Shown here: positions 45,685-62,790 of the stretch, one piece after another | How the letters are laid out: each line of letters begins with the position of its first letter | Numbering within the stretch: position 1 is the first letter of the stretch | Origin: a candidate division FCPU426 bacterium | GTDB taxonomy: Bacteria > Oederibacteriota > JAAXVQ01 > JAUVAV01 | Assembly: GCA_030591525.1 (NCBI GenBank) | Contig: JAUVAV010000008.1 | Coordinates: 15,839-79,838 of the forward strand | Length of the DNA: 64,000 bases | Reading direction: 5' to 3' | Position numbers and translations under genes: made by a program | The notes under the pieces: model-generated | Database searches by the model: none | What the model was told of the DNA's origin: nothing | Seen by the model: only the letters and a program-made list of their open reading frames with translations

Positions 45685-45822
45685 CCAGGAGCTTGAGCAT
45701 TTAGTCTGCTTTTTGAGAGTAGATAGTAGAAAGTAGACCGCATTTGAGATATTTTATCTAATTTCTACTATCGAATCTCAAATGCTCTGAAGCCTGAGTA
45801 ACTAGTTGCTCAGGCTTCTAGG
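45685..45822. repeat. Family C miniature inverted-repeat element (canonical copy). Its right terminal inverted repeat overlaps the stop codon of the giant gene.
   Basis: The sequence is CCAGGAGCTTGAGCATTTAGTC-...AGTAGATAGTAGAAAGTAGACCGCATTTGAGATATTTTATCTAATTTCTACTATCGAATCTCAAATGCTC...-GAGCCTGAGTAACTAGTTGCTCAGGCTTCTAGG. Confidence 0.85.
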
Positions 45823-48800
45823 CCGCGCCGGCGTATGACAAAGACATTTCCCGGATACGACGAGGCGGACGTAACTGCTGCCCATTGGAGTGAAAGATTT
45901 CGTCGTCGTACAAGGTCATCAACTGTTCCTTGAGAAGATCGTCTTTCAAAAGCCGGGCGGGTATTACGCGCTTGATCAAACCTGCCTGGCCGGCGCGAAA
46001 TTGAAGGACTTGCTGGTTGGCCGGGTCAATATGCCGGAAGATCAGTAAAATATGGTCGCGATATGCCAGATCACCCGCCAGCTTGGCACGCCGCATTTCT
46101 TTCATAAGATGGTGCATGATGGATGTGAGAATCTCGCCGTTTTGCGGCGAGTTATCCAACCGGTGCAGGGTACGCATCAGCCAGGCGTCCTGGTTCAAGC
46201 AGCGTTCCCGGATCCGGCGGGAAATAACCGATTTATCATGCAGTTCGGGATCTGCGGCCAGGACTTCTTGTAAGTAACGGCCGGGCGCCAGGTAAAAAGC
46301 GGTTCCATTGATTTTATTCGCATGGTAAATGATCATCTTCAAATGATGATCGATTTCATCAGCTTGAGTATGGGTTATCCGCAGTATCCATAGGAAAACA
46401 GGCGAACGATTCATCAATTTCCGGCCGTCGTGCCATTGCTTTTTTATATGGTCATTCTCCGGAACCGCGTGCCAGGCGCGGCCGTTAACCACTTTTAAGA
46501 TGTCTTTTATGGCTTTCCAAAAAGCCGGCTGCCGCATAAGAAGAATAACCAACAGGATTCCGGGAAGCTTGCGTTGGGAAACGCCAAGCTTCAGGTGCAG
46601 GGAATGTTGTCCGGCCTTTTTAAGCGCCCGGGATCCCATCACCAGTGCCAAGACGAAAAGCACCAGCCGTGATACTTTTTTGCGGGCGGCTATGGCGGTA
46701 TCAGCGCCGGTTTCCTCTCCCGGCAGGCGAATTCCTTCTTTTTCAAGGCCGGAGAATCCGGCAGACCGTCCCGCCACGCCGGCCGCCGCGCTTCGGAAAT
46801 CCGCAAAGGGTGCCTGCAGCGCTTCTTCAGAAATTACCGGTACCGGGCCTTGGCGGAAAACAGCTATACGATAAAGATCATCGCGGTAATGTGTCCGCCG
46901 GATGGCTTCCGCTTCATCCTTTGAAAAGTCCAACCGCCCGGAACTCTGTTCCTCCCGGACGCGCTGTTCAAAGGCGGCCTGCGCGGCTTGATTATCCGCC
47001 AAACCGGCTGCCGCCTCTCCCACCGAGGCGTGCATATCGGATGCCAGACTTTGCTTTTTTGCCCACCAGGCCAGGCGGTCCAGATCTACACCGTCTTTCC
47101 ACCCGTGGGCTCCAGGGCAATAATTAATAAACATGATACTGCCGGCCTTCAATTTGCGGGAAGCTTGCGTCATAACTTGGTAAGGAGTAAACCAGCAGAC
47201 TGCCACGCCGTCCTGGGCCTTACGGGCTTGGGCCTGCAAAATCTTCCGGCGTTCTTTGAAATAAGCGTTCAGCCCGGGTATGCCATCTAACTCAACCTCC
47301 CGGTTATCCGCCGCAATAAACCGAACCTTACCGGCACTGTTCATTTCTATCCGGACTGTGTTTTGATATTGCCCGCTCAGGATAATCATGCCTTTGAAAG
47401 CAGCCATGCTCTCCAGAGCGGCCGGCGTTTGCTCTCCCGCGGGAATATTAACCAGGCGCATATTCTTTAAAAAATCCCGATAGGTTTGCGCCGCCCCGGG
47501 ACGGATTTCCATGCGCTGGTTGAAGTAAGCTGTAATATCTTCCTGCAAACCGTCAATGTCCGTAACCAAGGTATATTTGCCCTTAAATTTCGCCGGGCCG
47601 CCTAATTGTTTCCACTGCCGGAAGGCGTACTCGGCAATCGCCGGACCCTGCCCCCGGTGCAGAATCCGCTGGTATGCGCTGTAGCCGGCTTGCAATCGTT
47701 CTTCCGCCTCCTGACTTGCCAGAGAATCAGGCTCCGGGTAAAACGTATCTGCCCGGGCTGCCAGGAAACCCAAATGTACCAGCCCCGCAGACACGCCGTT
47801 GCCAATAACCCGGCCTCCCAGCCAGCCGGCCGCAGCGCTCCAGACGGCCGCCAATCCGGTTAAGATCCACTCTTTCCGGCGGAAGCGTTTGAACCCGGAT
47901 CCAATCAAGGATAAGAATAGGCGCTGGTCCGGCTGAATTGGTTCCAGCATAAACCGCAACTTTTGGCCCAGAGGGCTGGTTTTAAAACGGAGCCAGGGCC
48001 GGATCAGAAAGAAACGCTGCCATTGGCCGGACCCCGGGGGTTGAGGTTTGATATTAAGCTCACGGTGGCGTTCCATAAGATTTATCAAAGACGCAGATTC
48101 TTCCTGCCTGAGCTGCTGCGCCATAGTCCCCGGAGACTTCCGGCTCCACTTCTGAAGCCAATCATCAGCCAGTCTTCCGGCGATCCCGCGAAACCTCTCA
48201 CGCGCTGCTTCCAGCTGGCCGGAATCGTAGACAGCATACGGTTCCGGCCAGGGATGAGCCAGCCGGGTGATTCCCGCCTTCTGGATTAAACGGCTGAATC
48301 CTTCCTCTTTGGTCAAGTCCTTGCTAGGGCAGTTGCTGGAGACCGCGGAAAGAGTAATCGGAACTTTGGAATAGCGGTTAATACGTTCCTTCAGAGTCTG
48401 CAGAAACAGAGGCGCCGCCTGGTTTAAATTCCGGACAACCAGCAAGCGTCCCAACTGCTCCTCCTCAATATGCATAAGCAGCGCGGGCAGCACCCAAGGA
48501 TGACAGGAATTTATTTCGGGCGCTTCTATTTTATATTCAATATCCAAAAGATGTGTGATTTCCGGGCAAACCACAACGATTCGGATTTTTTCCTTGTCAT
48601 AGACATGCCGGGGAGGCGCCCGGCTGATGAAAACCGCGGGTTCAAATTTTTTCAGCCGGCCTAAAAAGCTCAGTCGTTCAATAACTAACCGCTCCAAGCC
48701 GAAAAAACTCAACACCCAGGGGGCCGCTTTTTCATAAAGCAGATAGCCATCGGCATTTTTAACCTCAGAATTAATCGCATAGCGTTTTTGCAGAGCCCTG

Positions 48801-51800
48801 ATTTTTTTTAAATAATGAAAACTGAAAAGATTTTTACCTCCTCCGGAAAGTCTGTGCGGCATGGCTATAGGCTTTAATTTGCCCTGGTCTATCACAACTT
48901 TTTTATGTTGGTTCGCCTGGGCCCGGCACAGAAAATAACGGGCCCGGAATAAGCTGGCCTCGACCCACTCGGCCATTTCCCGGGAAGTAATCTGTTGTTC
49001 TCTTTGCTTCCGATTTAATTCCCGGCGTCTTGGTTCGGAATACACCAAGGAGGCCTTGGTAACTCCAAAAATGATTTCCGGAACAGGGAGAAATTCGCCG
49101 CATCCGGCCGGTGAACTTATCGGTTTTTCCGGGCCGGGTTGACTTATGGCCTGAAGCGTAATCGGCTCCAACTTCAGACCCAGGCTCTGTTCGGTCACCT
49201 GGTGCAGCAACCGGCCCGGCCGGGGACGCCATGCCCTATTTTGCAGGATATTTGCTTTTTCGGACCAAGGTAAGCTTTCAAGATAATTCTGGACTAAGTC
49301 GTGCCGATTGACGCGCAACAAAAGACGTACGCCGTGGAGCTCATCCTGCAACACCCTGACCAACTGATCGTCTCCCATGGTTTTACAAAGCCGGGCGGCG
49401 GCTTCTTCTACCTGTTGCAAAGTCATGGTTTTCTCCCAATCGCTTGCCGGGCGTACCAGGACGTACTTCTCCTCAAATTCCTGAGCCAGGATGCTTCGGA
49501 CATGCTGCAGAGCTGCGCTCACGCTATCGGCTGATAAGGTATGATCCATTAAAAAGGCCGCCCGTCCGTGAATGCCAAAACGCTCAATTTCCTGAAAACC
49601 TCTCCGGCCGTTCAGCCGGCGCATGAACTCCGTGTTTAGTATCCGGTGGATGTGGTCTGAAATATCCTGTTCGAGCATGCAGGCCACATCTTTCCCATAG
49701 ACTTGCTTGATGCTGAGGATATTCTCCAGTCCGGCCAGACCGATCCAGGCATCGCCTTTTTTCTGCAGGATACCGCGAAAGCGCGCGGTTTTTGTCTCTG
49801 GTTTCTTCCGAAGCAGAGCTTGATTAACCAACTTGATCGCTTCCGGAACTGGCAGGTACCGCATATCCAACAGTATGGCATCCGGATGAGGGTGAGCCGC
49901 TTCCTTGGGATTATGGTCGATTACATAAAATCGCGCGGCTTTTTCCGCCTGGTTCTCGAATAATCTAAATGATGGCGTCCGGCGGTGTCCCACTACAATG
50001 AGATTTTTTTCCTGGGCGGCATGATCCACCAAGCATTGATCTACCTGACCGCTGAAATGATCGCGGAGCATATCTTCTGTAAAAATCCGCTTTACCATAG
50101 CCTTGACTTCCGGCTGCATGATTTCTTCCATTTCCGGCTGATCGTGATGCGGTTTTCCGTTCGCGCCTTCATATTCTACCAGCATGCTGTTTTCACCTGT
50201 TCGGGAATTGAATTGAGGCGTGATATTTATTCGGGAGATGGTTTTTTGTATGCCGATCAGCCGGGCCGGAGTAAGCGGTGACCGGCCATCCAGACCTTTC
50301 TGCCGCTGTACGTCCAGCACTTTCCAGGCCAAGGCCCGGCGCATGAATTCCACGTTAACATAACTGTACCCATATTGGCGTGCCATCAGGGCCGCCAGTT
50401 GGTGCTTATGAAAAGTTCCCGGTCCGTCCAGGGTTATAATATGGCGTATTTGTTTATGGGAATAATTATAGGCACCCCAGATGGCCGTTAATCCGGCGGC
50501 GGCCGCTATCAACCAAGCCGCAGGCAAGCTCAAAATTATGCCTGAGACGCCGGCCCCCAGCCCTATGGCTCCCAGCACGAGCATACGGAGCGCGTCTCTC
50601 TGCCTCGGGTGCAAAAAGCCGCTCCAAATTCGATGAAATATGCGCGCCAGGGAAAGATACTCCAAAAAGGTAGCCGTATAATAGCTGCGGCCGACCTGGA
50701 TATCCAATAAATATTTGAGTACCGCCATTTGGCCATCGTGGGTTAATTTAAGCAAATTGGGATTCAACAAAATCTTGCCATCATCCCCAATATCGCCTAT
50801 GGTCCCAAAAGTCTGACCCCATTTTAGTTTCTCCGACGGCAGAACGCCGAAATGCGGCTTTTCCGGATACATCCCCGGATGCCGGGCCTGCAGTCCCGTA
50901 AAGAGCGGGGCCATGAACTCTACGATGTTTTCATTGGTTAAGCGGACCGCGTTCTTTTTTCTTTCTCTGAGTAAGGGTAACCTGTCCAGGCCGGGAATGC
51001 GGTTCAAGCTGGAATTCAGATAGGCGAATAAAAAACAGAAATAGTAATACATGCGAGGCCCGGAATTGAAAAACATATAGCCGCCGGATCCCAGGGACCA
51101 ACTGGTTGCAAATGTAAGGGATACCTGAGGCACAAAGAGCATGCCGAGCATTATTATAATAACCAAGGGAAAGAACAGCTTGACCATGCCGGTGCCATAG
51201 GCCTGTACCACGGCCTTGTGAAAAAGCGGGGGCGCGGTTTCACTCTTCCACGCAACCAAATATTTGTAGGTACCTTTGGTTAACTCGTAGACCAGTTTAA
51301 TCAGCACATGAACGGGAGACAAGGACAGATTACAGGGTCCTGACCACATGGCATCGGTAACCGACATGTCCAGCTTGGTGTGGGGATTGACTTTACGGAT
51401 AGCGTAAAAGTTTAGGGCCGCCATGCCTGCCACAAAAACCGCTGCCACCAAAATCCCGAGCGTAGGAAGTGCTGGGGATAACAAGGCCAGGATGAGACTT
51501 AAATACATGATGGTAAATATCCATCCGTAAGATTCGCTGATATGGCCTTTCCGGACCAAAGCTGCGGGATAAAACCAGGGCTCCAGGAGATGGGATAATC
51601 CTGCCGAAATGAAAATATTCCAAATATAATAACCCGGCGGTGGGCGCTGCAATTTTTCCTCAGCCTCTTGGGCTGCGGTCCGGTATGCCGCCAGACTGCG
51701 GTACTTGAAAAAACGGCTAATCGCAGGCCGGCGCAACAGCCCGTCGATCGCCTGATTAATAAAATAATGAGCATAAAGCTGGTAGGCCACGACAAAGAAC

Positions 51801-54223
51801 GGCGCTTCAATATTTTCCCGTAGCTTTTCCTGTCCGGCAGGCTGCGCGCCACGCAGCGGCTCCACCAGCGTGCCTTGTTCGTGATCCTCATAGACCACGG
51901 CTTCATCTATTTGTTCCAGACCGGCCAGCCCGTAGGTTTGATAAAGTTTGTAAACCACCCAGAAAAATCTCGATACGCTGACGACCAGATAAAAAACCAA
52001 GAAACCCGCCAATGCGGGCAAAAAGCTTCCCCCTATGCAAACCAAAACGGCTATAAGAACTGTTGCCCAGGTTTCCCGCAGGGTCATCCCTCCAGTATCG
52101 TATTTGTCTTTACTCCCACTGCCTCTCCGCATATTGAGCAAAGTAACTACCGTGGCGACGCTCCAAATTCCAAAAAAAATGCCCGGCAGGTTCGGTCCCA
52201 GAACCAAGACCGGCAGGATACCGGCCGCCATGGTCCCCAGGCCGTAGCGCGCTGACTTTGATGCGGATCGAAAAGAAAACCATTGCCGCCTCTTTTCATA
52301 TATTCCGGCCGCGATTTCCTTTCCTCTTTCCGCAAGCTGTTTGGTATAAGCTGCTGTGGGGGATAGCCGGGTTTGGTCCGGGGATTTCCATTTTTTCTTC
52401 GCAGTCCGGACGTGTGCCCATCCCGGCTTTTTCCCGTAAGCTCGCCGGCTTAGTCCCAGCATTTTGGCCAGAGTTTTTTCGTCACTCACTACATCGGCCT
52501 TCACAACATCAAAAACACTTCCCTTTCCCTCCAGGACCTGACTGTCTACGCAAGGGTAGGCGGGCGATTCCCGGGAAGGCCTCAAAATAATCCAGAAATA
52601 GTTTCCGTTCAATCTATCCTGGACCTTAAACGCAAATACCTTTCTGGCCGGGTCGCTCCAGGCTGAATCCATGTTCACTTGTACGGTTTCGTCGTTTTCT
52701 TTCCAGGACGTCAGGGTGCGTTGGAAATGACTTTTCAAGGTTTCTTTCCCGGTTTCGCCTTGGTTAATATGAAAATTCAAAATACTGATTTTACTGACTA
52801 CGTCCATAAGCCGCTGAGCCGTGAAGTCATTGAACAGGCTGGACGTCTTGAAATATTGCTCTTTTTCTTTCAGCAGCTTTTCCAGGGGTGTGCGCCGGCC
52901 ACGCAAAAGCGCAAAATAGGGATTCGATATATCCGGGCGCGTAAGCCGGGGTCTTACCGAAATAAAGGAAATATTGTGCCGCTTCAGCGCTTTCTCCACC
53001 AGAGCGGCATGAAAGCCGCCGGCGACCAGGGCGGCCAGACTCTGATTTTTCTTTTCCATTTTCTCCAGAAGATTTTGCACAAAGGCCTGGGAACGGGTAT
53101 CAGCCAGGGAATAAAAATTCATGGCGGACTCAAGATAGTGGTCCATCTCCCCCACACCGGGATCGAGATCCAAATCCAGGCCGCCGGTATATGACCATTT
53201 CTCCAGAAAAGCCAGCAGCGTCTTCACCGAGCATTCCTGCGGGTGGGACCGAAAATAATCCAACTCCTCCGGCTCAGCGCTGATGGCTATCATCTTTTCC
53301 ATGATCGTCAGCAGGTAAAGGCAATGATCCAGTTCGCGCTGTTGCGGGGATAGATAGGAAGCTTCCCGCAGCGCTTTTTCCAGGCATCGCAGTTTGACAC
53401 GCTCTTCCTCCGCATCCGGCCATCCGGAGTGCATCAGGTCCGCGCTGAACGCAAAGACGAGTCCTCTGCGCCGCGCTTCCTTCCGGAGAAAATTACCATA
53501 CTTTTTCAGGGAGATGCCTTGGCACTCATAACTTTCTTTCATATGGTCCAGCTTGGCCAAATCCAGGCTGTAAATGGAAGGCTTTATTTTTTGAAAAGCA
53601 TGGCGCAGGTCCGCGCACAGGCCTTGGCTGGCATAGTTTAAAAAACCGTCCAAGGCGCTCTTCTCAGCGGCGTAGAGTTCCGGTGATTCCACGCCTTGAA
53701 GCTCCAGAGGAAAATTGCTGGTAATGGCCGCATATTCCGCGCCGGTAATATACCCGCGTTTTAAAAAGTATTCAGCCACGTCCATCTTGACGCGCCTAAT
53801 CGGAAGGGTTGCTAGCTTGTCCACGTCTACCCGACGGCTGTCCCCTTCCACGCCTACCAGACGCAAATCATGGCCGCGGGCCAAACGCTCCAGAATTTTA
53901 GAGATGTGGCTTTGAATTTCATGATGACAATGCAGATCATGGACAAAAACCACCATCCGCCCGGCACTGCCCTGGTTACTGCTGGTGACACACCCCAGAT
54001 CCGGCAAGATATTCGAAGCCACAGATTGAAGGACGCGGGAAACATTTCCCCGTTCCCAACCAACTCCGGCACGGAAGGCGGACCCGTCAAAGGCAAAACC
54101 CAAAGTGGGAAAAATCAATCCCACGGCAAGCAGCAAAGTCAGGGCACGATTTAGACACTGCCCCATCGGACTTCTTCGCCAAAAGATCAATCCCGGCCGG
54201 GCTTTTTCCATTGGCTTTTTCAT
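45818..54223 (-). CDS. Giant (~2800 aa) multidomain membrane protein of unknown function
   Basis: It is an 8.4-kb uninterrupted ORF. The likely start, ATG 54223, is preceded by AAGAGAGG. A 28-codon upstream in-frame extension to 54307 is possible. Hydrophobic blocks lie at aa ~50-70, ~690-780, ~895-1100, ~1240-1280, ~2040-2075 and ~2560-2620. A degenerate cytidylate-kinase-like segment (IITLDGPGTFHK...YGYSYVNVEFMRRALAW) is present. A TraB/GumN-like pair of motifs occurs near the N-terminus (VVFVHDLHCHH ... LVAGGFHAAL). Confidence 0.8.
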   Translation of the reverse strand: MKKPMEKARPGLIFWRRSPMGQCLNRALTLLLAVGLIFPTLGFAFDGSAFRAGVGWERGNVSRVLQSVASNILPDLGCVTSSNQGSAGRMVVFVHDLHCHHEIQSHISKILERLARGHDLRLVGVEGDSRRVDVDKLATLPIRRVKMDVAEYFLKRGYITGAEYAAITSNFPLELQGVESPELYAAEKSALDGFLNYASQGLCADLRHAFQKIKPSIYSLDLAKLDHMKESYECQGISLKKYGNFLRKEARRRGLVFAFSADLMHSGWPDAEEERVKLRCLEKALREASYLSPQQRELDHCLYLLTIMEKMIAISAEPEELDYFRSHPQECSVKTLLAFLEKWSYTGGLDLDLDPGVGEMDHYLESAMNFYSLADTRSQAFVQNLLEKMEKKNQSLAALVAGGFHAALVEKALKRHNISFISVRPRLTRPDISNPYFALLRGRRTPLEKLLKEKEQYFKTSSLFNDFTAQRLMDVVSKISILNFHINQGETGKETLKSHFQRTLTSWKENDETVQVNMDSAWSDPARKVFAFKVQDRLNGNYFWIILRPSRESPAYPCVDSQVLEGKGSVFDVVKADVVSDEKTLAKMLGLSRRAYGKKPGWAHVRTAKKKWKSPDQTRLSPTAAYTKQLAERGKEIAAGIYEKRRQWFSFRSASKSARYGLGTMAAGILPVLVLGPNLPGIFFGIWSVATVVTLLNMRRGSGSKDKYDTGGMTLRETWATVLIAVLVCIGGSFLPALAGFLVFYLVVSVSRFFWVVYKLYQTYGLAGLEQIDEAVVYEDHEQGTLVEPLRGAQPAGQEKLRENIEAPFFVVAYQLYAHYFINQAIDGLLRRPAISRFFKYRSLAAYRTAAQEAEEKLQRPPPGYYIWNIFISAGLSHLLEPWFYPAALVRKGHISESYGWIFTIMYLSLILALLSPALPTLGILVAAVFVAGMAALNFYAIRKVNPHTKLDMSVTDAMWSGPCNLSLSPVHVLIKLVYELTKGTYKYLVAWKSETAPPLFHKAVVQAYGTGMVKLFFPLVIIIMLGMLFVPQVSLTFATSWSLGSGGYMFFNSGPRMYYYFCFLFAYLNSSLNRIPGLDRLPLLRERKKNAVRLTNENIVEFMAPLFTGLQARHPGMYPEKPHFGVLPSEKLKWGQTFGTIGDIGDDGKILLNPNLLKLTHDGQMAVLKYLLDIQVGRSYYTATFLEYLSLARIFHRIWSGFLHPRQRDALRMLVLGAIGLGAGVSGIILSLPAAWLIAAAAGLTAIWGAYNYSHKQIRHIITLDGPGTFHKHQLAALMARQYGYSYVNVEFMRRALAWKVLDVQRQKGLDGRSPLTPARLIGIQKTISRINITPQFNSRTGENSMLVEYEGANGKPHHDQPEMEEIMQPEVKAMVKRIFTEDMLRDHFSGQVDQCLVDHAAQEKNLIVVGHRRTPSFRLFENQAEKAARFYVIDHNPKEAAHPHPDAILLDMRYLPVPEAIKLVNQALLRKKPETKTARFRGILQKKGDAWIGLAGLENILSIKQVYGKDVACMLEQDISDHIHRILNTEFMRRLNGRRGFQEIERFGIHGRAAFLMDHTLSADSVSAALQHVRSILAQEFEEKYVLVRPASDWEKTMTLQQVEEAAARLCKTMGDDQLVRVLQDELHGVRLLLRVNRHDLVQNYLESLPWSEKANILQNRAWRPRPGRLLHQVTEQSLGLKLEPITLQAISQPGPEKPISSPAGCGEFLPVPEIIFGVTKASLVYSEPRRRELNRKQREQQITSREMAEWVEASLFRARYFLCRAQANQHKKVVIDQGKLKPIAMPHRLSGGGKNLFSFHYLKKIRALQKRYAINSEVKNADGYLLYEKAAPWVLSFFGLERLVIERLSFLGRLKKFEPAVFISRAPPRHVYDKEKIRIVVVCPEITHLLDIEYKIEAPEINSCHPWVLPALLMHIEEEQLGRLLVVRNLNQAAPLFLQTLKERINRYSKVPITLSAVSSNCPSKDLTKEEGFSRLIQKAGITRLAHPWPEPYAVYDSGQLEAARERFRGIAGRLADDWLQKWSRKSPGTMAQQLRQEESASLINLMERHRELNIKPQPPGSGQWQRFFLIRPWLRFKTSPLGQKLRFMLEPIQPDQRLFLSLIGSGFKRFRRKEWILTGLAAVWSAAAGWLGGRVIGNGVSAGLVHLGFLAARADTFYPEPDSLASQEAEERLQAGYSAYQRILHRGQGPAIAEYAFRQWKQLGGPAKFKGKYTLVTDIDGLQEDITAYFNQRMEIRPGAAQTYRDFLKNMRLVNIPAGEQTPAALESMAAFKGMIILSGQYQNTVRIEMNSAGKVRFIAADNREVELDGIPGLNAYFKERRKILQAQARKAQDGVAVCWFTPYQVMTQASRKLKAGSIMFINYCPGAHGWKDGVDLDRLAWWAKKQSLASDMHASVGEAAAGLADNQAAQAAFEQRVREEQSSGRLDFSKDEAEAIRRTHYRDDLYRIAVFRQGPVPVISEEALQAPFADFRSAAAGVAGRSAGFSGLEKEGIRLPGEETGADTAIAARKKVSRLVLFVLALVMGSRALKKAGQHSLHLKLGVSQRKLPGILLVILLMRQPAFWKAIKDILKVVNGRAWHAVPENDHIKKQWHDGRKLMNRSPVFLWILRITHTQADEIDHHLKMIIYHANKINGTAFYLAPGRYLQEVLAADPELHDKSVISRRIRERCLNQDAWLMRTLHRLDNSPQNGEILTSIMHHLMKEMRRAKLAGDLAYRDHILLIFRHIDPANQQVLQFRAGQAGLIKRVIPARLLKDDLLKEQLMTLYDDEIFHSNGQQLRPPRRIREMSLSYAGAA

Positions 54224-54510
54224 CAGGCCTCTCTTTGCTTTTTTAAAATATGCTCCTGTATTTTTTTGCAAACGCGGTAATAGAGAAATCCCATCACGCC
54301 TATGCAAAGTAAAACTATCAACCCTAAAACAATTTCCATTTTTCTATTCTCCTGTTTTTATTCAGATTAATTATAGCTTCTGTTGGTTAAGAAAATATTT
54401 CGGAAATGTGTTTTTTGTGTGAATATTTATCAGATGCTTTAGAGAGATCGCTGGAGAAAATACTAAATTGCACTAGTGTCGTGTTTCATAAGTACGTTGA
54501 ATTAATGTTT

Positions 54511-54632: not shown

Positions 54633-54770
54633 CTAGGAGCTTGAGTATTTAGTCAGTTTTTTGAGAGTAGATAGTAGAAAGTTGACCGCATTTGAGATAT
54701 TTTATCTAATTTCTACTATCGAATCTCAAATGCTCTGGAGCCTGAGCAACTAATTGCTCAGGCTCCTGGG
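54633..54770. repeat. Family C miniature inverted-repeat element between the giant gene start and the PHP-GT4 gene end
   Basis: About 95% identical to 45685-45822 and 58511-58645. Confidence 0.85.
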
Positions 54771-54777
54771 TAATATA

Positions 54778-57159
54778 TTATTGTAAAACCTGATCCCGTT
54801 TTTGCTCCTCGCCGAATAAATTTCCCAGGCTCTTTTCCCAGGTGTATTTCCGCAGAACATTTTCGCGCGCCTTAGCCTGCATTATGGCAAAAGCTTTGGG
54901 ATGATTCTTTTTAATATCCAACAGTTTGTTTATTGCCAGGGTCCAGGCTTCCAGGTAATTGGCCGGCAAAACCATGCCGGTTTCCTGATGAATTACAATT
55001 TCCTTCGGACCACCTATGTTTGATACGACCGCCGGCAAACCGCAAGCTTGCGCTTCCAATACCGCCATACCGAAAGTATCCGTGGTGCTTGGAAAAACCA
55101 AAAGATCGGCGGAACAGTATAATTCCGGAAGAGCCTCCCGGGGCAAGCGTCCAAAAAATTTGATCCCCGGAATTTTAATATATTTACTTTTTAGCCTTTC
55201 CAGGCAAGGTCCGTCTCCGGCAATAATAAGCTGCATATCCGGATTAACTCCCGTTAATTCCTCGTAAATTTTGAACAGGAAATCAATATTTTTATCTTTA
55301 GAAACCCGGCCGGAGTATAAAAGCGTGGGTTTTACAGCCTTTTTCCCTCCAAACTTGCGCGTTTGAATTTCAGGCTTAAACACTGCCGTTTCCACAGCTT
55401 TATTATAGTATGCCAGTTTATGCAGCGGATAATTGCGTGCTTTAAGAATATCCAGATAGGCTTTGGTCGGCACTTTTATCTCATCCATAAGGGAATAGAA
55501 CCACTTTATATATTGTTCAACCGTGCCGGCCAAATCATCCTGTCCGCTGATTTGAATAATCTGCGAAGAAAAATCTGTATGGTAAATTCCAGAACATGGC
55601 AAATTCAGCAGCTTGGCTGCCAGCACTCCCAGTAAACCAATTGGCCCTGGCGCGGAAACAAGTATCCTGTCAGGTTCTGCCTGATAAATAAGTTCCACCG
55701 CTTTAAGCACTGACGGTATAAAAAGATAAAGATTTTCATAATACGGCAAAGAAAAGGTATGAAAATAAGGCAGTATAAGGGTGTTCGGCGGAAGGCAGGC
55801 TTTATCACTTTTAGCGTCTATCGCCGCAGCGATTTGCACCTCAAACATTTTTTCATGTGCCAGCCGGCCGGTTTGTTTAATCGTCTCCGCAACCCCGTTC
55901 ATGTCCAGCAGCGTATCCGTAAACCATAATATCTTTTTTCTGCCTTTCCGGGAAACCGGCACATACTCCCTTCGCATATGATTAATCATGGTCCGGCTGC
56001 GAAACATATGCCGCAAACTTGTAAAAAACGGGATTGAGATAAAAACCGCAGGAATTGCCGAGGAAACATCCCGGATTATCTTGCTGATATCACCCCTTTT
56101 AATGTCCTTTTCCAAGACCTTAAATAACTCCTTCAAAAAGCCATCCGCAGCATTGGCAATATATTGAAACATGATCTGAAACTTCCGCTCATAGTCATCC
56201 TTCCCCCCGCTTCTAAACTCTTCCATCAGCCTTAGGAACGCTTCCTGGCCTTCATCCTTGCTCTTTAACCACTTCCACCGGCTTAATGGCAGGCGGTCTT
56301 TCCAGGAAAACCTGGCTCCCTGGAAAAGGCTATTATGTAATTGTTCGAGCAAAGGCTGGGATATGATCAATTTTTTATCTTCAGAAAAATCGTAAGCTAT
56401 CTTGTATATAGTAAAAACAAAGGTCCGGTAATTATTATGGCGGCCGCCAACCGTGGTAAGTTTATCCTTCAAGCAGAAGAGGTATTCCTCCGGAGAGAAA
56501 GCACCGGCTGTGGTATGGGTCGCTCCAATGAAAAGACCGGCGTGATCATCGCTGCCTCCGGTTATACCCTTTACCCAGGAATCATCACTAATCGGGTTTA
56601 TGCCGTGTTTTTTCTGCAGTGTGGCCAGGCGCTCTGGCGTAAGATTTTTTAAAATTCCCATCCAGCCAAAGTTGCTCATTTTATCCCGGCTGCCGTTGAT
56701 TCCTTCAAAAATATCGAAAAGCAGAATCAGCTTTTCGAGGTGGCTCTGCGTCAGACGGTCGTTCACCGAATAAGCGGCATGCGCGACTGAATAGGCCAAA
56801 TCCCGGCGCTTAATATAATCGCGCAAGTTGTAGATGTTCTGCCGGAGCGAATCAATTTCTTCCCACTCCTGGCGGCTAAAACCGTAGATAAGCAAATGCA
56901 CTTTACACCCGTCTTCCGGGAAATAGGTAGTCGCCTCAACTCCGGTAAAGCAATCCTTTGGGTACTTATTTTTTAAATATAAGGCTCCCTCGATTTTATT
57001 GTGGTCAGTAAGCGTGACAAAACGCATGCCCTTGGCTTTGGCTTGGCAATAAACTTCATCCGGACTGGTATAGGATTCATAAGCCCCTAATTTCTTCAGG
57101 AACCAGTCCGCGGCATGACGCGAATGTATGGAATGAACGTGCAAATCGGCTTTGGCCAT
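54778..57159 (-). CDS. PHP-domain (polymerase/histidinol-phosphatase-like metallophosphoesterase) fused to a GT4 (group 1) glycosyltransferase
   Basis: The N-terminus carries the PHP signature (ADLHVHSIHSRHAAD...TDHN). The C-terminus carries the GT4 EX7E region (SADLLVFPSTTDTFGMAVLEAQACGLPAV). The protein is 793 aa. Confidence 0.7.
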   Translation of the reverse strand: MAKADLHVHSIHSRHAADWFLKKLGAYESYTSPDEVYCQAKAKGMRFVTLTDHNKIEGALYLKNKYPKDCFTGVEATTYFPEDGCKVHLLIYGFSRQEWEEIDSLRQNIYNLRDYIKRRDLAYSVAHAAYSVNDRLTQSHLEKLILLFDIFEGINGSRDKMSNFGWMGILKNLTPERLATLQKKHGINPISDDSWVKGITGGSDDHAGLFIGATHTTAGAFSPEEYLFCLKDKLTTVGGRHNNYRTFVFTIYKIAYDFSEDKKLIISQPLLEQLHNSLFQGARFSWKDRLPLSRWKWLKSKDEGQEAFLRLMEEFRSGGKDDYERKFQIMFQYIANAADGFLKELFKVLEKDIKRGDISKIIRDVSSAIPAVFISIPFFTSLRHMFRSRTMINHMRREYVPVSRKGRKKILWFTDTLLDMNGVAETIKQTGRLAHEKMFEVQIAAAIDAKSDKACLPPNTLILPYFHTFSLPYYENLYLFIPSVLKAVELIYQAEPDRILVSAPGPIGLLGVLAAKLLNLPCSGIYHTDFSSQIIQISGQDDLAGTVEQYIKWFYSLMDEIKVPTKAYLDILKARNYPLHKLAYYNKAVETAVFKPEIQTRKFGGKKAVKPTLLYSGRVSKDKNIDFLFKIYEELTGVNPDMQLIIAGDGPCLERLKSKYIKIPGIKFFGRLPREALPELYCSADLLVFPSTTDTFGMAVLEAQACGLPAVVSNIGGPKEIVIHQETGMVLPANYLEAWTLAINKLLDIKKNHPKAFAIMQAKARENVLRKYTWEKSLGNLFGEEQKRDQVLQ

Positions 57160-57270: not shown

Positions 57271-58083
57271 TTAAGGCAATAAATCTTCCAGCCTCTGTCT
57301 GCTTTCCTTGATATATTCAAAATAGCGGGGCCTTACTTCCATTACCAGAAGGCAACCTGCCGGTTCTAATGCTTGAACGGCTTTTTCAAAAGGAATTTCT
57401 CCCCAGCCAGGCGGCATATGCATATCTCCCCGGCCGTGGGCGACCAGGAGATCCTGGTCTTTCTCCTGAAAATACGAGGGACGGCCGCAGTTATCCTGCA
57501 GGTGCATATGTTTAAGCCGAGGTTTTACTTTGGCAATGGTCCTTATAAAATCCTGGTTGTATAACATGGTTGAAAGATACGCATGTCCGATATCCAGGGT
57601 GATTCCTATATTTTCCTCGTCAATATCCTTTACCTGTTTTGCTAATTCCCCGATTTCTTCGGCATAAGTGTAACCTTTTTCGCCGATAAAAGGCCGGGCA
57701 TTCTCCATGCCAAGAATTACCTTCGCTTGCCTTAAAAGCACGGAGAATTCTTTTAGAATATTCCGCTCTCTCTTCTTCCCTTCCACCTTTTCCAAAGGGC
57801 TCAATCTTTTTCTCTGGCTTAACCGGATCTCAACCTCGGACTTAAATCTTCCCGGATGATAGACTAAAATACGCGAGCCAATCTCGTGTGAAAACTCAAC
57901 CAATGATTTAAACACTGCCTTTTCTGCGGCTATTTCCTCCCGGTTCATTAAATTAAGGCTTTCCGGACAGTGAACAGAATAAGCGAAAGGGTAATCTTTA
58001 AGAAGGTTTTTTATTGCTTTTAGTCTTTGGTCTCTGATTCTTCCTCCTACAATCACATCCAATCCATGAAGGGGAAGTTCCAC
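57271..58083 (-). CDS. Sugar-phosphate isomerase/epimerase (xylose-isomerase-like TIM barrel, AP-endonuclease 2 fold)
   Basis: It has the metal-ligand pattern typical of this fold (..VYHPG.. , ..DIGHAY.., ..MHLQDN..). It is 270 aa. Confidence 0.65.
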   Translation of the reverse strand: MELPLHGLDVIVGGRIRDQRLKAIKNLLKDYPFAYSVHCPESLNLMNREEIAAEKAVFKSLVEFSHEIGSRILVYHPGRFKSEVEIRLSQRKRLSPLEKVEGKKRERNILKEFSVLLRQAKVILGMENARPFIGEKGYTYAEEIGELAKQVKDIDEENIGITLDIGHAYLSTMLYNQDFIRTIAKVKPRLKHMHLQDNCGRPSYFQEKDQDLLVAHGRGDMHMPPGWGEIPFEKAVQALEPAGCLLVMEVRPRYFEYIKESRQRLEDLLP

Positions 58084-58510
58084 TACATCAAAACCGGCAT
58101 AACCGCAACCCTCCTGTCAGCCATGCAAACTGTGATGCATCAGGCACCAGGTCAGGAGTTGGGCCCGGCGTTCGTCTTCCAACCATGTAAGAAAGGTCTC
58201 CGGTTTTCCCATTCTGCGCTCCCCGGGATTTTCAGCTGCGGGCCGAGGTTTATTTTTGGATTTGTCTCGGCGCGGCAGAGGACGCGTTTTCGGCCCGTCC
58301 GGCCGGCAGCGGCTCAACGGTCGGCCACTGGGATAAAGATCCGTTCTTGTCCGCAATTTTCGCAAATCCGGGCAATCCATAACCGGCATGGTGTTTTTCT
58401 CCTTTCAATATTTTTGCGAAGTATAGCAGAACTCAGATAATGTTTCCGTAAGGAGGATGTTAGAATTGGATAATATTTTACGGGTATAATTGATTGGATT
58501 TATAGACGTA

Positions 58511-58645
58511 GGGGGCTGAGCAATTAGTCGGTTTTTTGAGAGTAGATAGTAGAAAGTAGACCGCATTTGAGATATTTTATCTAATTTCTACTATCGAATC
58601 TCAAATGCTCTGGAGCCTGAGCAACTAATTGCTCAGGCTCCTAGG
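58511..58645. repeat. Family C miniature inverted-repeat element between the TIM-barrel and ClC genes
   Basis: It ends in GAGCCTGAGCAACTAATTGCTCAGGCTCCTAGG, which is itself a perfect 12-bp-stem hairpin. Confidence 0.85.
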
Positions 58646-58668
58646 GGACATGGTAATCTTCCCCCAGG

Positions 58669-60507
58669 TTATAAATACCCGCCGCGCTTGGCGGTTTTTG
58701 TCCTGGCCAGGTTCAGAGCTTCCATTTTCTGATTATAGGTATAGATAACATCATGCTTAGTCAGCAACCCTCTGAGCTCGCCATGCTCGTTTTCCAGCAC
58801 CGGCAGTTCATCCATGCCGTATTGCGAAAACATCGTAATCGCCTGTTGCAGATTCTCATGCGGGGTAATAAAGGGGAAGTCGGTCTTGGCCACATCCGCG
58901 GCTATTACCAGGTTGAGATCCAAGTTTCCTTCAAAAAGCACTTCGCGCAAATCATCAAAGTAAATCATGCTGGTCACCAGGTTTTCCTGGTCAACCACGG
59001 GCACGGAATTCTGCTTGCGTCCGCTCATCAGTTTCAGCATTTCCGCGAGGGGGGTCACGGCTCTTATGCTGATTGGCCGGCTTTCCATAACCTTGGTATC
59101 CCGCAATGACAGGCCGGCTAAGAGGTCGATAATGAAATCCCCGCGGTGGGCGGGCGAATCAATCGTGCTTAAAGCCTGCTTTTCATACAGGCTGAAATGC
59201 CGGGTGAAAAGCACGGCAATGGCCGATACCAGCATCATGGGCACCAACAGTCCATAATCTCCCGTCATTTCCGAAACCATAATCAGGCTGGCTATCGGCA
59301 CCTTGGCGACTCCGGCAAAAAAGCCGCCCATGCCCACTATGACCATGGCGGTTGGATCTGGAACGAACTTCGGCGGTAAAATATCCGCGAGCAACATGCC
59401 GGTGGCTCCTCCCAGCATGGCTCCTATGAATAAAGAAGGAGCGAAGACGCCGCCTGATCCGCCGGAGCTGATGGTAAATGAGGTAGCGAATATTTTGCCC
59501 GCGACCAAAAGCAACATAAGCGAAATGGCCAGCTTGTGTTCCATGGCCTGCTGAATAAACTGATAACCGCCGCCCCATACCTGGGGAAGTGCAAGCACCA
59601 GCAGACCCAGCAGAAGACCGCCTAAAGCAGGCTTGGACCAGGCTGGGATAGGCAACGGCTTGAAAAACCGGTCCCGCATCCCATAAAATAATTTAATATA
59701 AACAATGCCGGCCAGCACGCAGAGCAAGCCCAGCACGGTATAGGCGAGCAACTCCTCGGCGCGCTCAAACCGCAAGGGCGGAATGTTAAAAAGCCGCTCC
59801 TGCCCCACCAGCCGGGTATATAATGAATAAGCGGTCAGGGAGGCAATGACGCTGGGAATCAGGGCCTCGGTTTCCAATTCGTGATTGCGGTAAAGCACCT
59901 CGGTGGTAAAAATCGCGCCGCCCAAGGGAGCCTGGAAAATTGCGGATATGCCCGCGGCCGCGCCTGCCAAAACCATGAGCCGCCGGTCCTTTACCGGGAC
60001 TTTAAGCAGCTTCCCCAGCAAAGATCCAAAACCCGCGCCAATCTGGGCAATGGGCCCTTCGCGGCCGGCCGAGCCGCCGGTTCCTATAACGGCCGCCGAG
60101 GCCAGCGTCTTAATGATTGGTACGCGGACCCTGATGTGTCCGCGATTATGATGAAAACTGTGAATGACTGCATCAGTTCCATGCCCCTCAGCCTCGGGCG
60201 CGCCAAAATATACCAGCAGGCCTGAAACCACTCCTCCGATTACCGGAATTAAAGGCACGAGCCACCATCCGGGGGCCTTAATCAAGGGCATGAAATGTCC
60301 GGGAAGATGTGCGGCCTGCGGAACTATATTGTAAAGCAATCCTTCGGTAAAGACGCCTCGGGAGAAATTTAAACAGAGCATAAAAATCCAGGCTCCCAGG
60401 CCTCCCACCAGGCCGATTAATATTCCATAAAAGATCCATTTTCCTATAACATTAATCTCTATTTTCTGCATGGCTTTCCGGAATTTTATAAAAATATCGT
60501 TAATCAT
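58669..60507 (-). CDS. ClC-family voltage-gated chloride channel/transporter with C-terminal tandem CBS domains
   Basis: It has the selectivity-filter motifs GSGIP-like, GREGP (GREGPIAQIG) and GxFxP (GGVFAPSLFIG). It is 612 aa with a CBS pair in the last ~150 aa. Confidence 0.85.
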   Translation of the reverse strand: MINDIFIKFRKAMQKIEINVIGKWIFYGILIGLVGGLGAWIFMLCLNFSRGVFTEGLLYNIVPQAAHLPGHFMPLIKAPGWWLVPLIPVIGGVVSGLLVYFGAPEAEGHGTDAVIHSFHHNRGHIRVRVPIIKTLASAAVIGTGGSAGREGPIAQIGAGFGSLLGKLLKVPVKDRRLMVLAGAAAGISAIFQAPLGGAIFTTEVLYRNHELETEALIPSVIASLTAYSLYTRLVGQERLFNIPPLRFERAEELLAYTVLGLLCVLAGIVYIKLFYGMRDRFFKPLPIPAWSKPALGGLLLGLLVLALPQVWGGGYQFIQQAMEHKLAISLMLLLVAGKIFATSFTISSGGSGGVFAPSLFIGAMLGGATGMLLADILPPKFVPDPTAMVIVGMGGFFAGVAKVPIASLIMVSEMTGDYGLLVPMMLVSAIAVLFTRHFSLYEKQALSTIDSPAHRGDFIIDLLAGLSLRDTKVMESRPISIRAVTPLAEMLKLMSGRKQNSVPVVDQENLVTSMIYFDDLREVLFEGNLDLNLVIAADVAKTDFPFITPHENLQQAITMFSQYGMDELPVLENEHGELRGLLTKHDVIYTYNQKMEALNLARTKTAKRGGYL

Positions 60508-60583
60508 CGCTTTTCTCTCACCATTTTTATTTCTGGTAATCCAGATGCTCGCAACGCGTCCGGACAGCGGTTTCCACGCCGGG

Positions 60584-61618
60584 TTAAACCACGACTTTCA
60601 ATGCCCGGGCTACCACCTTGATTTTCAGCGGCATACGGCCAAAATAGTCGCCGTCTATCTGGACATGCTGTTTCCGGTCCAGCACTTCAATTTTTCGGCA
60701 CTGTGAATATTCCACGTCCAGAAATTTGCCCAAGGCTCCGAGACGCAAACCCCAAAAGTAGGCCAAAAAACTGAAAAACCCCCGCTTTTTAAAAACACAG
60801 ACGTCCAACAAACCATCCTGCATATTCGCGTGGGGCAGGAGCACCGTATTGCCGCCGTAATACTTGATGTTTCCGATGATTAATAAATAACCTCTTTGAA
60901 TCGGCGCCTGGCCGTCAATCCGGAAATGCACATGTCGAAACGGGTACACAAATAAGCTGGCAACTCCGGCCACCAGGTAGGCCAGGGCCCCGATGATTTT
61001 TTTGAGCTTCCAATCAGTCTGTTTGATTACAAACGCATCAAAACCTACGCCCGTCCAGCAGGTAAAATACCGATTATCGACCTTTCCCAGATCAATGGTG
61101 ATTTGTCTGCCCTGGGCGATTCGCTGACAGGCGCCCGGTAAATCAGCGGGAATTTTCATTTGCAGGCCGAAGATGTTCGCGGTTCCGGTAGGGATGACTC
61201 CCATGGCGGTTTGGGAACCTGCCAGTCCGTTGGCAACGGCATTGATTGTACCGTCCCCCCCGGCCACAATAACCAGAGCATAATTTTCCCGGGCGCAATA
61301 ACGGGCCATGGCCGTGGCGGCAGCAGGCGACATGATCGTAGCCGGTTCAGGATCAATGCCGTGGACTTGAAGTTGTTTGAGGATTTTCCTCAGGTGTTCT
61401 CCCGGGCGAGTGATCTTGAACAACCGTTTTTTCTTATCGGGGAATAATAAATTCGAAAAAAGCGGCAGGATCAATCCCGAGCCGGATCGGGGATTAAAGA
61501 TCAGCTTTATTTTCGAGCTCTTCTTGGCCGCAGGGGATCCGGATTTGCGGCGAGGAGAAGATTTATGAATAATTTTTTTTTTGATCGGTTTTTTTTCTAA
61601 CATATTCATCTCCTGCAA
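60584..61618 (-). CDS. Diacylglycerol-kinase catalytic-domain lipid kinase (YegS/BmrU/DagK family) with a Lys-rich N-terminal tail
   Basis: DAGK_cat motifs are present (LIFNPRSGSG ... VIVAGGDGTINAVANGL). The N-terminal 40 aa are K/S-rich. Confidence 0.75.
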   Translation of the reverse strand: MQEMNMLEKKPIKKKIIHKSSPRRKSGSPAAKKSSKIKLIFNPRSGSGLILPLFSNLLFPDKKKRLFKITRPGEHLRKILKQLQVHGIDPEPATIMSPAAATAMARYCARENYALVIVAGGDGTINAVANGLAGSQTAMGVIPTGTANIFGLQMKIPADLPGACQRIAQGRQITIDLGKVDNRYFTCWTGVGFDAFVIKQTDWKLKKIIGALAYLVAGVASLFVYPFRHVHFRIDGQAPIQRGYLLIIGNIKYYGGNTVLLPHANMQDGLLDVCVFKKRGFFSFLAYFWGLRLGALGKFLDVEYSQCRKIEVLDRKQHVQIDGDYFGRMPLKIKVVARALKVVV

Positions 61619-61657
61619 TCCAGATGCTCCTAATACGTCGAGTTCGTTTAGTTAGTT

Positions 61658-61792
61658 TAGGAGTTTGAGCATTTAGTCGGTTTTTTGAGAGTAGATAGTA
61701 GAAAGTAGACCGCATCTGAGATGTTTTATCTAATTTCTACTCTCGAATCTCAAATGCTCTGGGGCCTGAGCAACTAATTGCTCAGGCTCCCA
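61658..61792. repeat. Family C miniature inverted-repeat element immediately 5' of the lipid-kinase gene
   Basis: It has the same terminal inverted repeats and core as the other copies, with a few substitutions. Confidence 0.85.
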
Positions 61793-61842
61793 GGCAAGCG
61801 GGACATACTTAATTTAAGATTCTGCTGCAAAACTCCCTAGAA

Positions 61843-61934
61843 GTCATTGCGAGCGACCGTAGGGAGCGCGGCAATCTGATTTTATCCTTATAAAATCGAG
61901 ATTGCTTCGTCGCTACCGCTCCTCGCAAAGACAG
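61843..61934. repeat. Family A-like inverted-repeat element (GTCATTGCGAGCGACC... / ...CCTCGCAAAGACA) nested in a longer inverted repeat (GATTCTGCTGCAAAAC ... GTTTTGCAGCAGAATC, 61818-61957)
   Basis: Read directly from the sequence. The six-frame ORF 61809-62114 lies inside it and is treated as spurious. Confidence 0.7.
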
Positions 61935-62076
61935 CAAAAAGGGTTTTGCAGCAGAATCATTTTTCAGCTTAATAAATAATAACTTAAGAGCGCTGAAAAA
62001 CAAAATTAAGCGGTGTTCTCCCTTCCGGGAGTTGGTGAAGTCAAGGTATACAAAGCAGGGTATCCCGCTTGGTCGA

Positions 62077-62790
62077 TTATGTAAAATATTTTTGTATGTC
62101 CAAAACCGTGACATAAATAATTATGCCAAAAAGCAGCAACAGACCGGCCAGTGTAACTGGAATTTGCCAACGCGGCACGCTGGGATGAATTTTTTCCAAA
62201 AGGTACAGCATAATTTTACCGCCATCCAGACCGGGAATCGGCAATAAATTTAGAACCGCTAAATTGAGACTTATAATAATTGTAAACCACAAAGCTTTTC
62301 CCATATCCGCGGCAATAAAATCCGCGCCTTGCGAAACAATCCCTACTATGCCGCTGAGTTGACCGGGGTGGGTAAACAAAAGCGGCAGGGACATGATAAT
62401 GTGATTAAACTGAAGAATCGTTTGGGACCAGGGATGGATAAACAGCCCGGCTAAAGTCATTCCTTCCTGGATAAAATTCACAACGCTAAAAAGCAGGACG
62501 GGTAATATCAGGTTAGCGAGCGGACCCCCGAGCGCAAATATCATGCGGCGACGTATCGGAATTTTAAAATATTCGGTTTCGGATGCCAGGGCCGGCAATA
62601 CATACCCGCCTAAAGGAATCCAGGAAATCCTAAATTCCGTCTCCCCGATTTTTCTCGACATAAGTTTGGGGCCAAACCCGATCGAAAAAACAGCTATGGG
62701 GATTTTCATAATTCGTCCGGCGATTAAATGTCCAATTTCATGCACCAATATCAAAATTCCGATAATGAAAATAATTATCAGGTAGTGCAT
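62077..62790 (-). CDS. Site-2-protease family zinc metalloprotease (peptidase M50), short form without a PDZ domain
   Basis: HExxH lies in the first TM helix (LVHEIGHLIAG). A second conserved region (NLAVLNLLPIPGLDGG) is present. It is a 237-aa polytopic membrane protein. Confidence 0.75.
   Translation of the reverse strand: MHYLIIIFIIGILILVHEIGHLIAGRIMKIPIAVFSIGFGPKLMSRKIGETEFRISWIPLGGYVLPALASETEYFKIPIRRRMIFALGGPLANLILPVLLFSVVNFIQEGMTLAGLFIHPWSQTILQFNHIIMSLPLLFTHPGQLSGIVGIVSQGADFIAADMGKALWFTIIISLNLAVLNLLPIPGLDGGKIMLYLLEKIHPSVPRWQIPVTLAGLLLLFGIIIYVTVLDIQKYFT

Follow-up and report, generated by a model that had tools for sequence, protein, structure and literature searches.

A predicted Tiki-headed modular membrane protein with a degenerate cytidylate-kinase-like cassette, encoded among non-conserved neighbours in a candidate division FCPU426 bacterium

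We analyzed a 64,000-nucleotide stretch of DNA (the whole of which we call the window) from contig JAUVAV010000008.1 of a candidate division FCPU426 bacterium (GenBank assembly GCA_030591525.1), in which one minus-strand open reading frame (ORF) of 8.4 kb encodes a protein of 2801 amino acids (aa), termed here the giant protein. We propose, with a probability of about 0.6, that this is a compact modular membrane protein composed of a Tiki-type head that would act as a hydrolase in the periplasm and of a cytoplasmic cassette with a catalytically dead cytidylate-kinase (CMK)-like domain, and that it is the product of a single gene, not of the seven-gene envelope system proposed in an initial annotation of the window. 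As sequence comparison shows, it belongs to a lineage-restricted family that is defined by an N-terminal hydrophobic segment, a Tiki-fold head of ~400 aa and, mostly, a C-terminal Ala. The content between head and tail varies among members, both in the number of transmembrane (TM) blocks and in enzyme domains, and in the window protein it is limited to a polytopic block and a single recurrent CMK cassette.

The giant gene is genuinely coding, and the purifying selection on it, though relaxed, is unbroken along its length, degenerate cassette included. With the ATG at 54223 as the start codon, the window protein was 100% identical over 2801 aa to a database protein (P0001), and orthologs such as P0002 (81% identity) and P0003 (79%) were found, the 79-81% identical orthologs being spread over three independent assemblies (loci L001, L002, and L003). 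Comparison with L001 gave a Ka/Ks of 0.32 overall and of 0.19 to 0.66 per 150-codon window, with the degenerate cassette among the most constrained parts (0.19 to 0.32), and all neighbouring genes had lower values than the giant gene (0.07 to 0.18). An assembly artefact was rejected on the grounds of the three independent assemblies and of a Ka/Ks below 1 throughout. The motifs quoted in the initial annotation (VVFVHDLHCHH, LVAGGFHAAL, and DGPGTFHKH) are all present in the translation, and its statement that a large remainder of the protein belongs to no nameable family was borne out by profile and PDB searches: the giant protein had a single, sub-threshold Pfam match, and a search with aa 600 to 2801 retrieved only the three orthologs.

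We then looked into the head domain. An AlphaFold2 (AF2) model built from an alignment of 37 relatives' segments reached a predicted local distance difference test score (pLDDT) of 87.6 and contained a parallel beta-sheet core flanked by helices, which is the common core of the TIKI fold (PMC6254334). EreC and Bcr135 made up the top three Foldseek matches of this model, and the head resembles the EreA/ChaN/TraB-PrgY/TIKI superfamily (the erythromycin esterases EreA/B/C, Bcr135/136, ChaN, TIKI, RRSP, and HopBA1) in its fold and in its conserved His/acid residues and Arg. The candidate catalytic set consists of D96, H98, E126, R377, and H405. We aligned 114 long relatives to the head hidden Markov model (HMM) and scored 112 of them: D96 was kept in 110/112, and H98, E126, R377, G402-G403-x-H405, and P425 were kept in 112/112. 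Active enzymes of the Tiki superfamily have a common 2His/2Glu site, formed in RRSP by E3900, H3902, E3930, and H4030 (PMC6254334), and the arrangement of an acid-x-His followed by a Glu 28 residues further on has the same spacing in the head as in RRSP (E3900/H3902/E3930). Unlike the known members, this head has an Asp for the first Glu, contains a helical insertion of ~200 aa, and is fused, across the family, to 1.2 to 9.5 thousand aa (kaa) of further modules. The TraB/GumN-like module of the initial annotation is thus supported at the level of the fold, by the model, the Foldseek matches, and the invariant residues, and the head looks catalytically competent.

The head is preceded by a K/R-rich start and a hydrophobic stretch (aa 20 to 45 on the Kyte-Doolittle scale), in agreement with the N-terminal signal or TM segment noted initially. 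We predict that this stretch is a signal peptide, possibly cleaved between GFA and FD, or a signal anchor. A hydrophobic segment close to the N-terminus is present in most relatives as well, and a [WFV]AF[EDSAN] motif was found in 20 of the 114.

Evaluation of the family revealed 107 database proteins of 1.6 to 4.9 kaa that match the giant protein only over aa 15 to 600. The head HMM also matched the starts of neighbouring genes encoding 4,027 and 9,861 aa, as well as proteins of 5,599 to 6,244 aa. Such head-bearing giants stand in tandem in other genomes, for example a 2229-aa protein beside the 4027-aa protein (L006, 14251 onward) and a 2907-aa protein beside the 9861-aa protein (L007, 14825 onward), and further genes of 2.9 to 6.8 kaa, whose starts lie off the locus, are found upstream. 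The Pfam domains of the relatives include PEP synthase, phosphoglucomutase, isocitrate lyase, malate synthase, glycogen synthase, kinases, and RelA/SpoT, and the relatives with an organism name came mostly from metagenome-assembled genomes of Omnitrophota and Elusimicrobiota but also from Chlamydiota and others. When the alignment of 37 head sequences was used as a profile against an index of 5.8 billion proteins, 3 proteins only were retrieved, a number affected by candidate dilution.

The C-terminal Ala is a second hallmark of the family, besides the head. It is present in 94/114 family proteins, where ~10 would be expected at an Ala frequency of 8 to 9%, and the last two residues are most often AA (40 proteins), SA (16), QA (14), or NA (8); the 20/114 non-Ala C-termini may include truncated gene calls. 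This feature recalls the C-terminal recognition signals of the ssrA/Tsp type. In the window protein, the last ~235 aa form a domain ending in SYAGAA, preceded by two hydrophobic segments, and this tail matches the C-terminus of P0014 (aa 2513 to 2796 of the window protein, 24% identity); a PDB sequence search with the tail gave nothing real. The region upstream of the tail (aa 2031 to 2500), found only in the three close orthologs, had no match in a PDB sequence search, and a weakly hydrophobic stretch lies near aa 2140.

The polytopic membrane blocks claimed for the giant protein were recovered as hydrophobicity peaks between aa 660 and 1255. The blocks lie at about aa 660 to 760, 900 to 1070, and 1215 to 1251, with peaks at about aa 668 to 696, 712 to 740, 919 to 937, 1013 to 1031, and 1215 to 1251 and soluble loops between them. 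This region is partly common to P0004 (aa 643 to 2024 of the window protein), P0136 (aa 803 to 2010), and P0132 (aa 713 to 947), and no match to it was found in a PDB sequence search.

The CMK-like domain begins directly after the last TM pair. It scored 16.4 to 20.7 bits on Pfam Cytidylate_kin, where the gathering score is 26 bits, and the corresponding segments of five relatives (P0132, P0133, P0134, P0137, and P0138) scored 59 to 99 bits. The top 19 Foldseek matches of the domain were all CMP kinases (E values of 1e-5 to 8e-4, TM(target) of 0.44 to 0.59). The Walker A motif reads GPGTFHKH instead of GxxxxGK[ST], so that the second Gly and the Ser/Thr are absent; the P-loop is likewise degenerate in P0004 and P0136, and at least two relatives, P0133 and P0135, carry an intact GPDATGKT. 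PDB sequence searches with parts of the giant protein yielded a weak match for the CMK part alone. A cytidylate-kinase-like segment with a degenerate Walker A had been described in the initial annotation, and the Foldseek and Pfam results confirm it. Compared with Cmk itself (PF02224), the domain retains the fold, the N-terminal strand-loop-helix, and a YRA-like motif, but it is sub-threshold, has the altered Walker A, and lies within a giant protein, behind a TM pair. These differences make it unlikely to be a kinase.

We searched 1.84 billion representatives exhaustively by HMMER with aa 1255 to 2454 and retrieved nine proteins only. All of them are long (1.7 to 6.2 kaa), and a Tiki-type head is present in each of those whose N-terminus is intact. 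The cassette, composed of the TM pair, the CMK domain, and a module of ~500 aa (module 2), recurs at varied internal positions in P0132 to P0138. In these relatives (alignment A5, window aa 1464 to 2140), module 2 shows SD[IV]D...YGK, IRxGGDE, and SIGAxK in a GGDEF-like order, as well as a second, similar block, ELEGxY...AGDxMI; in the window protein and P0004, these motifs are replaced or deleted. GGDEF (PF00990) matched the relatives' module 2 below the Pfam threshold (E values of 0.003 and 0.096), hhalign gave a probability of 6.6% with the motifs in register, and a PDB profile search with module 2 found no match. A relationship of module 2 to GGDEF or palm domains is therefore suggested as a lead only.

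The initial annotation regarded the architecture of the giant protein as undescribed. Long multi-enzyme membrane proteins of Omnitrophota are in fact known, including proteins with a signal peptide and TM segments (bioRxiv 10.64898/2026.06.07.730766), and the giant classes reported include 'Archaeovorin', dockerin-type, and multi-enzyme proteins (bioRxiv 10.1101/2023.11.21.568195, bioRxiv 10.64898/2026.06.07.730766, PMC10066038). The giant Omnitrophota ORFs are described as poorly conserved, with few annotated domains (PMC10066038), and in one report their N-terminal regions contained no identifiable domains except C39/S8 peptidases (bioRxiv 10.1101/2023.11.21.568195). The novel part would be the Tiki-type head and the CMK-like domain: a text search found no mention of Tiki or TraB in PMC10066038, in a survey of huge proteins (PMC11573180), or in either bioRxiv report, nor, with terms that varied by paper, of ChaN, erythromycin esterase, GumN, PF04187, or cytidylate kinase in the same four. 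The family resembles the Omnitrophota giants in that its long relatives have signal peptides or TM segments and are tiled with unrelated enzyme domains, some adjoining head-bearing genes of 4 to 10 kaa. The window protein differs from them in its size (2801 aa, 8.4 kb), which is below the length thresholds used in that literature (at least 5 to 10 kaa, or an ORF of >20 kb), in having no recognisable enzyme cargo, and in that a Pfam scan found neither the SecA-DEAD nor the C39/S8 peptidase features of the published giants. On the sequence comparisons, the window protein is thus a compact 2.8-kaa variant within a known kind of long protein, with a head and a CMK-like domain not mentioned in those papers.

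As for the function of this protein, the head domain of PrgY/TraB and of TIKI is exported. By analogy, the K/R-rich N-terminus and hydrophobic segment would export the head of the giant protein to the periplasm, with the protein itself residing in the inner membrane. The head would act there as a His/acid-type hydrolase, a peptidase or an esterase, whose target could be the giant polypeptide itself or else a substrate that is exported or belongs to the envelope. The CMK cassette would lie on the cytoplasmic face, because of the basic residues right after the TM pair and of the requirement for nucleotides; being presumably dead as an enzyme in the window lineage, it probably has a structural role or one in sensing or binding a ligand.

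Several points weigh against this picture. The Foldseek E values for the head are modest, and the window head is under every Pfam threshold, with no match at E≤0.1 to PF04187, PF01963, or PF05139. PF04187 ('Tiki superfamily, ChaN') was weakly matched by 8/37 relatives (best E value, 3e-4), a PDB sequence-profile search with the head profile gave nothing real, and the equivalence of residues between the head and Tiki enzymes was judged by order and spacing, not by residue-level superposition. The TM segments were called from a hydrophobicity scan alone, and the placement of the head outside and the cassette inside derives from the distribution of charges and the analogy with PrgY and TIKI. The AF2 model of aa 1255 to 2140, made from 4 sequences, had a pLDDT of 47.7 and was confident only at about aa 1275 to 1415 (68 to 89), and about 1,700 aa of the protein, in the membrane blocks and the modules beyond the CMK domain, have no fold assignment. 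Finally, the conserved adjacency of one neighbouring gene, considered below, could reflect a real functional link.

If the picture holds, the head with its invariant catalytic-type residues, the CMK cassette, and the C-terminal Ala would provide a common, testable handle on the giants of Omnitrophota and neighbouring phyla, and they raise the questions of whether these polyproteins are processed and, if so, which enzyme does it and whether this happens inside or outside the membrane. The window protein, with 2.8 kaa and no enzyme cargo, could serve as a tractable model for the common scaffold. We advance one broader idea tentatively, as possible more than probable: an exported head of the Tiki/TraB fold and an obligatory C-terminal Ala tail might together define an unrecognised superfamily that forms the 'chassis' of many giants of the Omnitrophota/Elusimicrobiota type. 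The head might then be a maturation or processing enzyme or supply a fixed envelope-acting activity, and the window gene might encode a minimal, cargo-free chassis with a pseudoenzyme scaffold cassette.

We then examined whether the genes around the giant gene belong to a conserved system. The gene directly upstream encodes a PHP-like domain fused to a GT4 glycosyltransferase (PHP-GT4), and it keeps this position in the window, L001, L002, and L003, with a gap of 143 to 302 nt in the relatives devoid of the inserted repeat described below. Among the neighbours, PHP-GT4 is the only one that may be functionally linked to the giant gene. The two could form a two-gene unit, in which the GT4 would, for instance, glycosylate either a lipid that the giant protein handles or that protein itself; both genes are under moderately relaxed constraint (Ka/Ks of 0.18 for PHP-GT4). 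Although such cooperation would be compatible with a Tiki-headed membrane protein, we consider it rather unlikely. The loci that display the adjacency are 79 to 90% identical, so inherited synteny may explain it, and PHP-GT4 was not found beside family members in L004, which contains the 32% identical relative P0004, or in L006 to L020. A metagenome scan with PHP-GT4 yielded no additional relatives.

The larger unit of the initial annotation is improbable. It would be a seven-gene operon for an envelope pathway, of a glycolipid or a glycoconjugate, in which the giant protein acts as scaffold or translocase. The seven consecutive minus-strand ORFs do exist (45818 to 63688; Table 1), although the cluster as initially delimited ended at 62790 and left out its seventh gene, that of the HExxH protein. 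Pfam and NCBIfam agreed with most of the families proposed for the neighbours; the matches of the HExxH protein were weak, and the PHP part of PHP-GT4 scored 30 bits on CehA/McbA (PHP), under its cut-off. The genes are co-directional and several of their products are membrane- or lipid/sugar-related (GT4, YegS-type kinase, TIM barrel, and M50), and a CMK-fold domain could in principle serve CMP/CDP turnover in lipid synthesis, but the Walker A of that domain is degenerate. The same-strand run is also much longer, with 17 minus-strand genes from phoR (34626) to 63688, pst/pho included, and the GC skew is negative over almost the entire window; co-directionality is thus expected from replication-strand bias and is weak evidence for an operon, and we rejected an operon read from it. 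Three of the internal gaps measure 458 to 585 nt and contain strongly folding repeats. A scan for promoters and terminators gave no difference from shuffled sequence, and no Rfam family matched anywhere in the window.

In the blocks common to L001 and the window (pho/pst, O/P porin, giant gene, PHP-GT4, ClC, and M50), the DNA is 87 to 93% identical, and the following segments are found only in the window: 62803 to 63752 (HExxH gene), 60561 to 61964 (DagK and a repeat copy), 57273 to 58111 (TIM barrel), 58515 to 58668 and 54469 to 54768 (one repeat copy each), and 42787 to 45815 (a 3-kb low-GC insert). The HExxH, DagK, and TIM-barrel genes are therefore missing, as clean single-gene gaps, from the locus of the 81% identical ortholog, which is the only locus to keep ClC and M50 in synteny. 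In L002 and L003, an SLFN/AlbA gene lies upstream of PHP-GT4, and PHP-GT4 is the only neighbour kept beside the giant gene. P0004 sits between peptide-transport genes, and P0008, P0009, and P0014 are found in further, differing contexts. None of the six neighbours was found near family members in L004 or L006 to L020; tblastn of all window neighbours against the 15 more distant head-containing loci (L006 to L020) had no match, with many of these contigs being short. In a further close strain, a single 5.7-kb contig encodes P0123 and P0109, and there the TIM-barrel gene adjoins PHP-GT4. The seven-gene order is thus not kept in relatives. The initial annotation had itself named a lack of synteny in relatives as the sign of an accidental juxtaposition, and its pathway reading fails on that point. 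Since the neighbours are not kept, the seven-gene cluster appears to be such a juxtaposition. The neighbours are common genes for housekeeping or the envelope, and the stretch that contains them has often gained or lost single genes and received insertions of a mobile repeat; what looked like an envelope pathway cluster would have arisen by chance from these events. The DagK segment is flanked by an imperfect 50-nt direct repeat (60511 to 60560 and 61590 to 61639; 70% identity), which corresponds to the sequences that directly precede the start codons of ClC and DagK.

It is similarly improbable that the giant protein is a delivered polymorphic effector comparable to the MARTX or PMT toxins, in which the Tiki-fold domain would be an effector module and the variable domains the cargo. 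The head is the constant part of the family and not the variable one, the variable domains are enzymes of central metabolism and signalling instead of toxin domains, and the many internal TM segments argue for retention in the membrane; family and PADLOC scans of the genes next to the giant gene revealed none for a secretion system or for immunity. Most improbable is a decaying relic of a once multi-enzyme giant gene on its way to pseudogenisation, for although the window protein, compared with its relatives, has lost the Walker A, DxD/GGDE-like, and second palm-like motifs, in part by deletion, and Ka/Ks exceeds that of every neighbour, the 8.4-kb frame is unbroken, with equal length and an equal C-terminus in three diverged lineages, Ka/Ks is below 0.7 in every 150-codon window, and P0004 has the same degenerate motifs, which makes the degenerate state old and maintained.

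The repeat mentioned above is a 137-nt element with four copies, 93 to 100% identical and all in one orientation relative to transcription. It had been described as present in nearly every spacer of the cluster; we found it in only 3/6 internal spacers and in the flank downstream of the giant gene. It has inverted termini (GGAGCYTGAGCA...TGCTCAGGCTCC) and two internal hairpins, and the minus (transcribed) strand of copy 2 has a predicted fold of -49.3 kcal/mol (z of -7.0). L001 and L002 have no copies at the orthologous sites, and one copy is found elsewhere in L001; a TA target duplication is suggestive but not clear-cut. From this distribution, the element behaves as a mobile element resembling a miniature inverted-repeat transposable element (MITE), which would mark recent indels and would not be a cluster-specific regulatory signal. 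It shares with MITE/REP-type repeats (Correia, RUP, and ERIC/BIME) a short, non-coding sequence, inverted termini, a strong predicted fold, and several near-identical intergenic copies that are present or absent between close relatives. It differs from them in having no Rfam match and in the single orientation of its four copies, and no autonomous partner element was identified. The terminal CTAGG of copy 1 (45818 to 45822) overlaps the TAG stop of the giant ORF; a truncation of the ORF by this copy was rejected, as orthologs without copy 1 have an identical C-terminus.

Table 1. Coordinates, in the window, of the giant gene and its parts, the neighbouring genes, and the repeat copies
Feature	Position (nt)	Strand	Basis or location
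Giant ORF, 2829 aa from TTG	45818..54307	minus	ORF calls
Giant ORF, 2801 aa from ATG at 54223	45818..54223	minus	ORF calls
N-terminal hydrophobic segment, aa 20-45, after K/R-rich start	54089..54166	minus	Kyte-Doolittle scan
Predicted head domain, aa 60-470, EreA/ChaN/TraB/Tiki-superfamily fold with large helical insertion	52814..54046	minus	AF2/Foldseek
Polytopic membrane region, aa 660-1255	50459..52246	minus	Kyte-Doolittle scan
Cytidylate-kinase-fold (CMK-like) domain, aa 1258-1475	49799..50452	minus	Pfam sub-threshold and Foldseek
Module 2, rare conserved module of ~500 aa, aa 1476-2030	48134..49798	minus	HMMER, alignment A5
Region found only in three close orthologs, aa 2031-2500	46724..48133	minus	Sequence searches
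Tail, aa 2501-2801, two hydrophobic segments and C-terminal domain	45821..46723	minus	Homology
PHP-GT4, PHP-like N-terminus fused to GT4 glycosyltransferase	54778..57159	minus	Pfam Glycos_transf_1, 122.6 bits
Xylose-isomerase-like TIM barrel (AP_endonuc_2)	57271..58083	minus	Pfam/NCBIfam
ClC channel with CBS pair	58669..60507	minus	Pfam/NCBIfam
YegS/DagK-family lipid kinase (DAGK_cat/YegS_C)	60584..61618	minus	Pfam/NCBIfam
Short RseP-like M50 site-2 protease	62077..62790	minus	Pfam/NCBIfam
Membrane-anchored HExxH protein, putative metalloprotease	62834..63688	minus	Weak family matches
Repeat copy 1	45686..45822	plus	Directly downstream of giant gene
Repeat copy 2	54634..54770	plus	Between PHP-GT4 and giant gene
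Repeat copy 3	58509..58645	plus	Between ClC and TIM-barrel genes
Repeat copy 4	61658..61794	plus	Between M50 and DagK

We also noted further features of the window. A 101-aa minus-strand ORF (61809 to 62114), which abuts repeat copy 4 and shares sequence with the 3' end of the M50 gene, matched no family and is unlikely to be a gene. The insert at 42787 to 45815, located between the porin and giant genes, has a GC content of about 0.41 and encodes a 230-aa four-helix-bundle protein (23S rRNA IVS/TIGR02436 with a TIGR04258 suffix domain) and a 432-aa orphan ORF that matched nothing in Pfam, NCBIfam, or PADLOC; the 230-aa, HExxH, and 101-aa ORFs likewise had no PADLOC match. A 48-nt repeat at the edge of this insert (42820 to 42867) recurs at 58407 to 58454. 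A second family of intergenic repeats of ~140 nt (11499 to 11636 and 41232 to 41343; 89 to 90% identity) has one copy between pstS and the O/P porin gene. Farther away, a 75-nt direct repeat (31093 to 31167 and 34558 to 34632; 97% identity) flanks a Y2-type transposase fragment (31513 to 32013), cheR (32375 to 33199), and a trypsin-like protease gene (33331 to 34062), and the segment between its copies, which lies beside phoR, may be a mobile insertion. A calcineurin-like phosphoesterase ORF (29399 to 30976) contains thirteen 24-nt tandem repeats that encode 8-aa units (29631 to 30079), and it ends in a Por_Secre_tail sorting domain of the type IX secretion system (T9SS), which hints at the presence of such a system in the organism.

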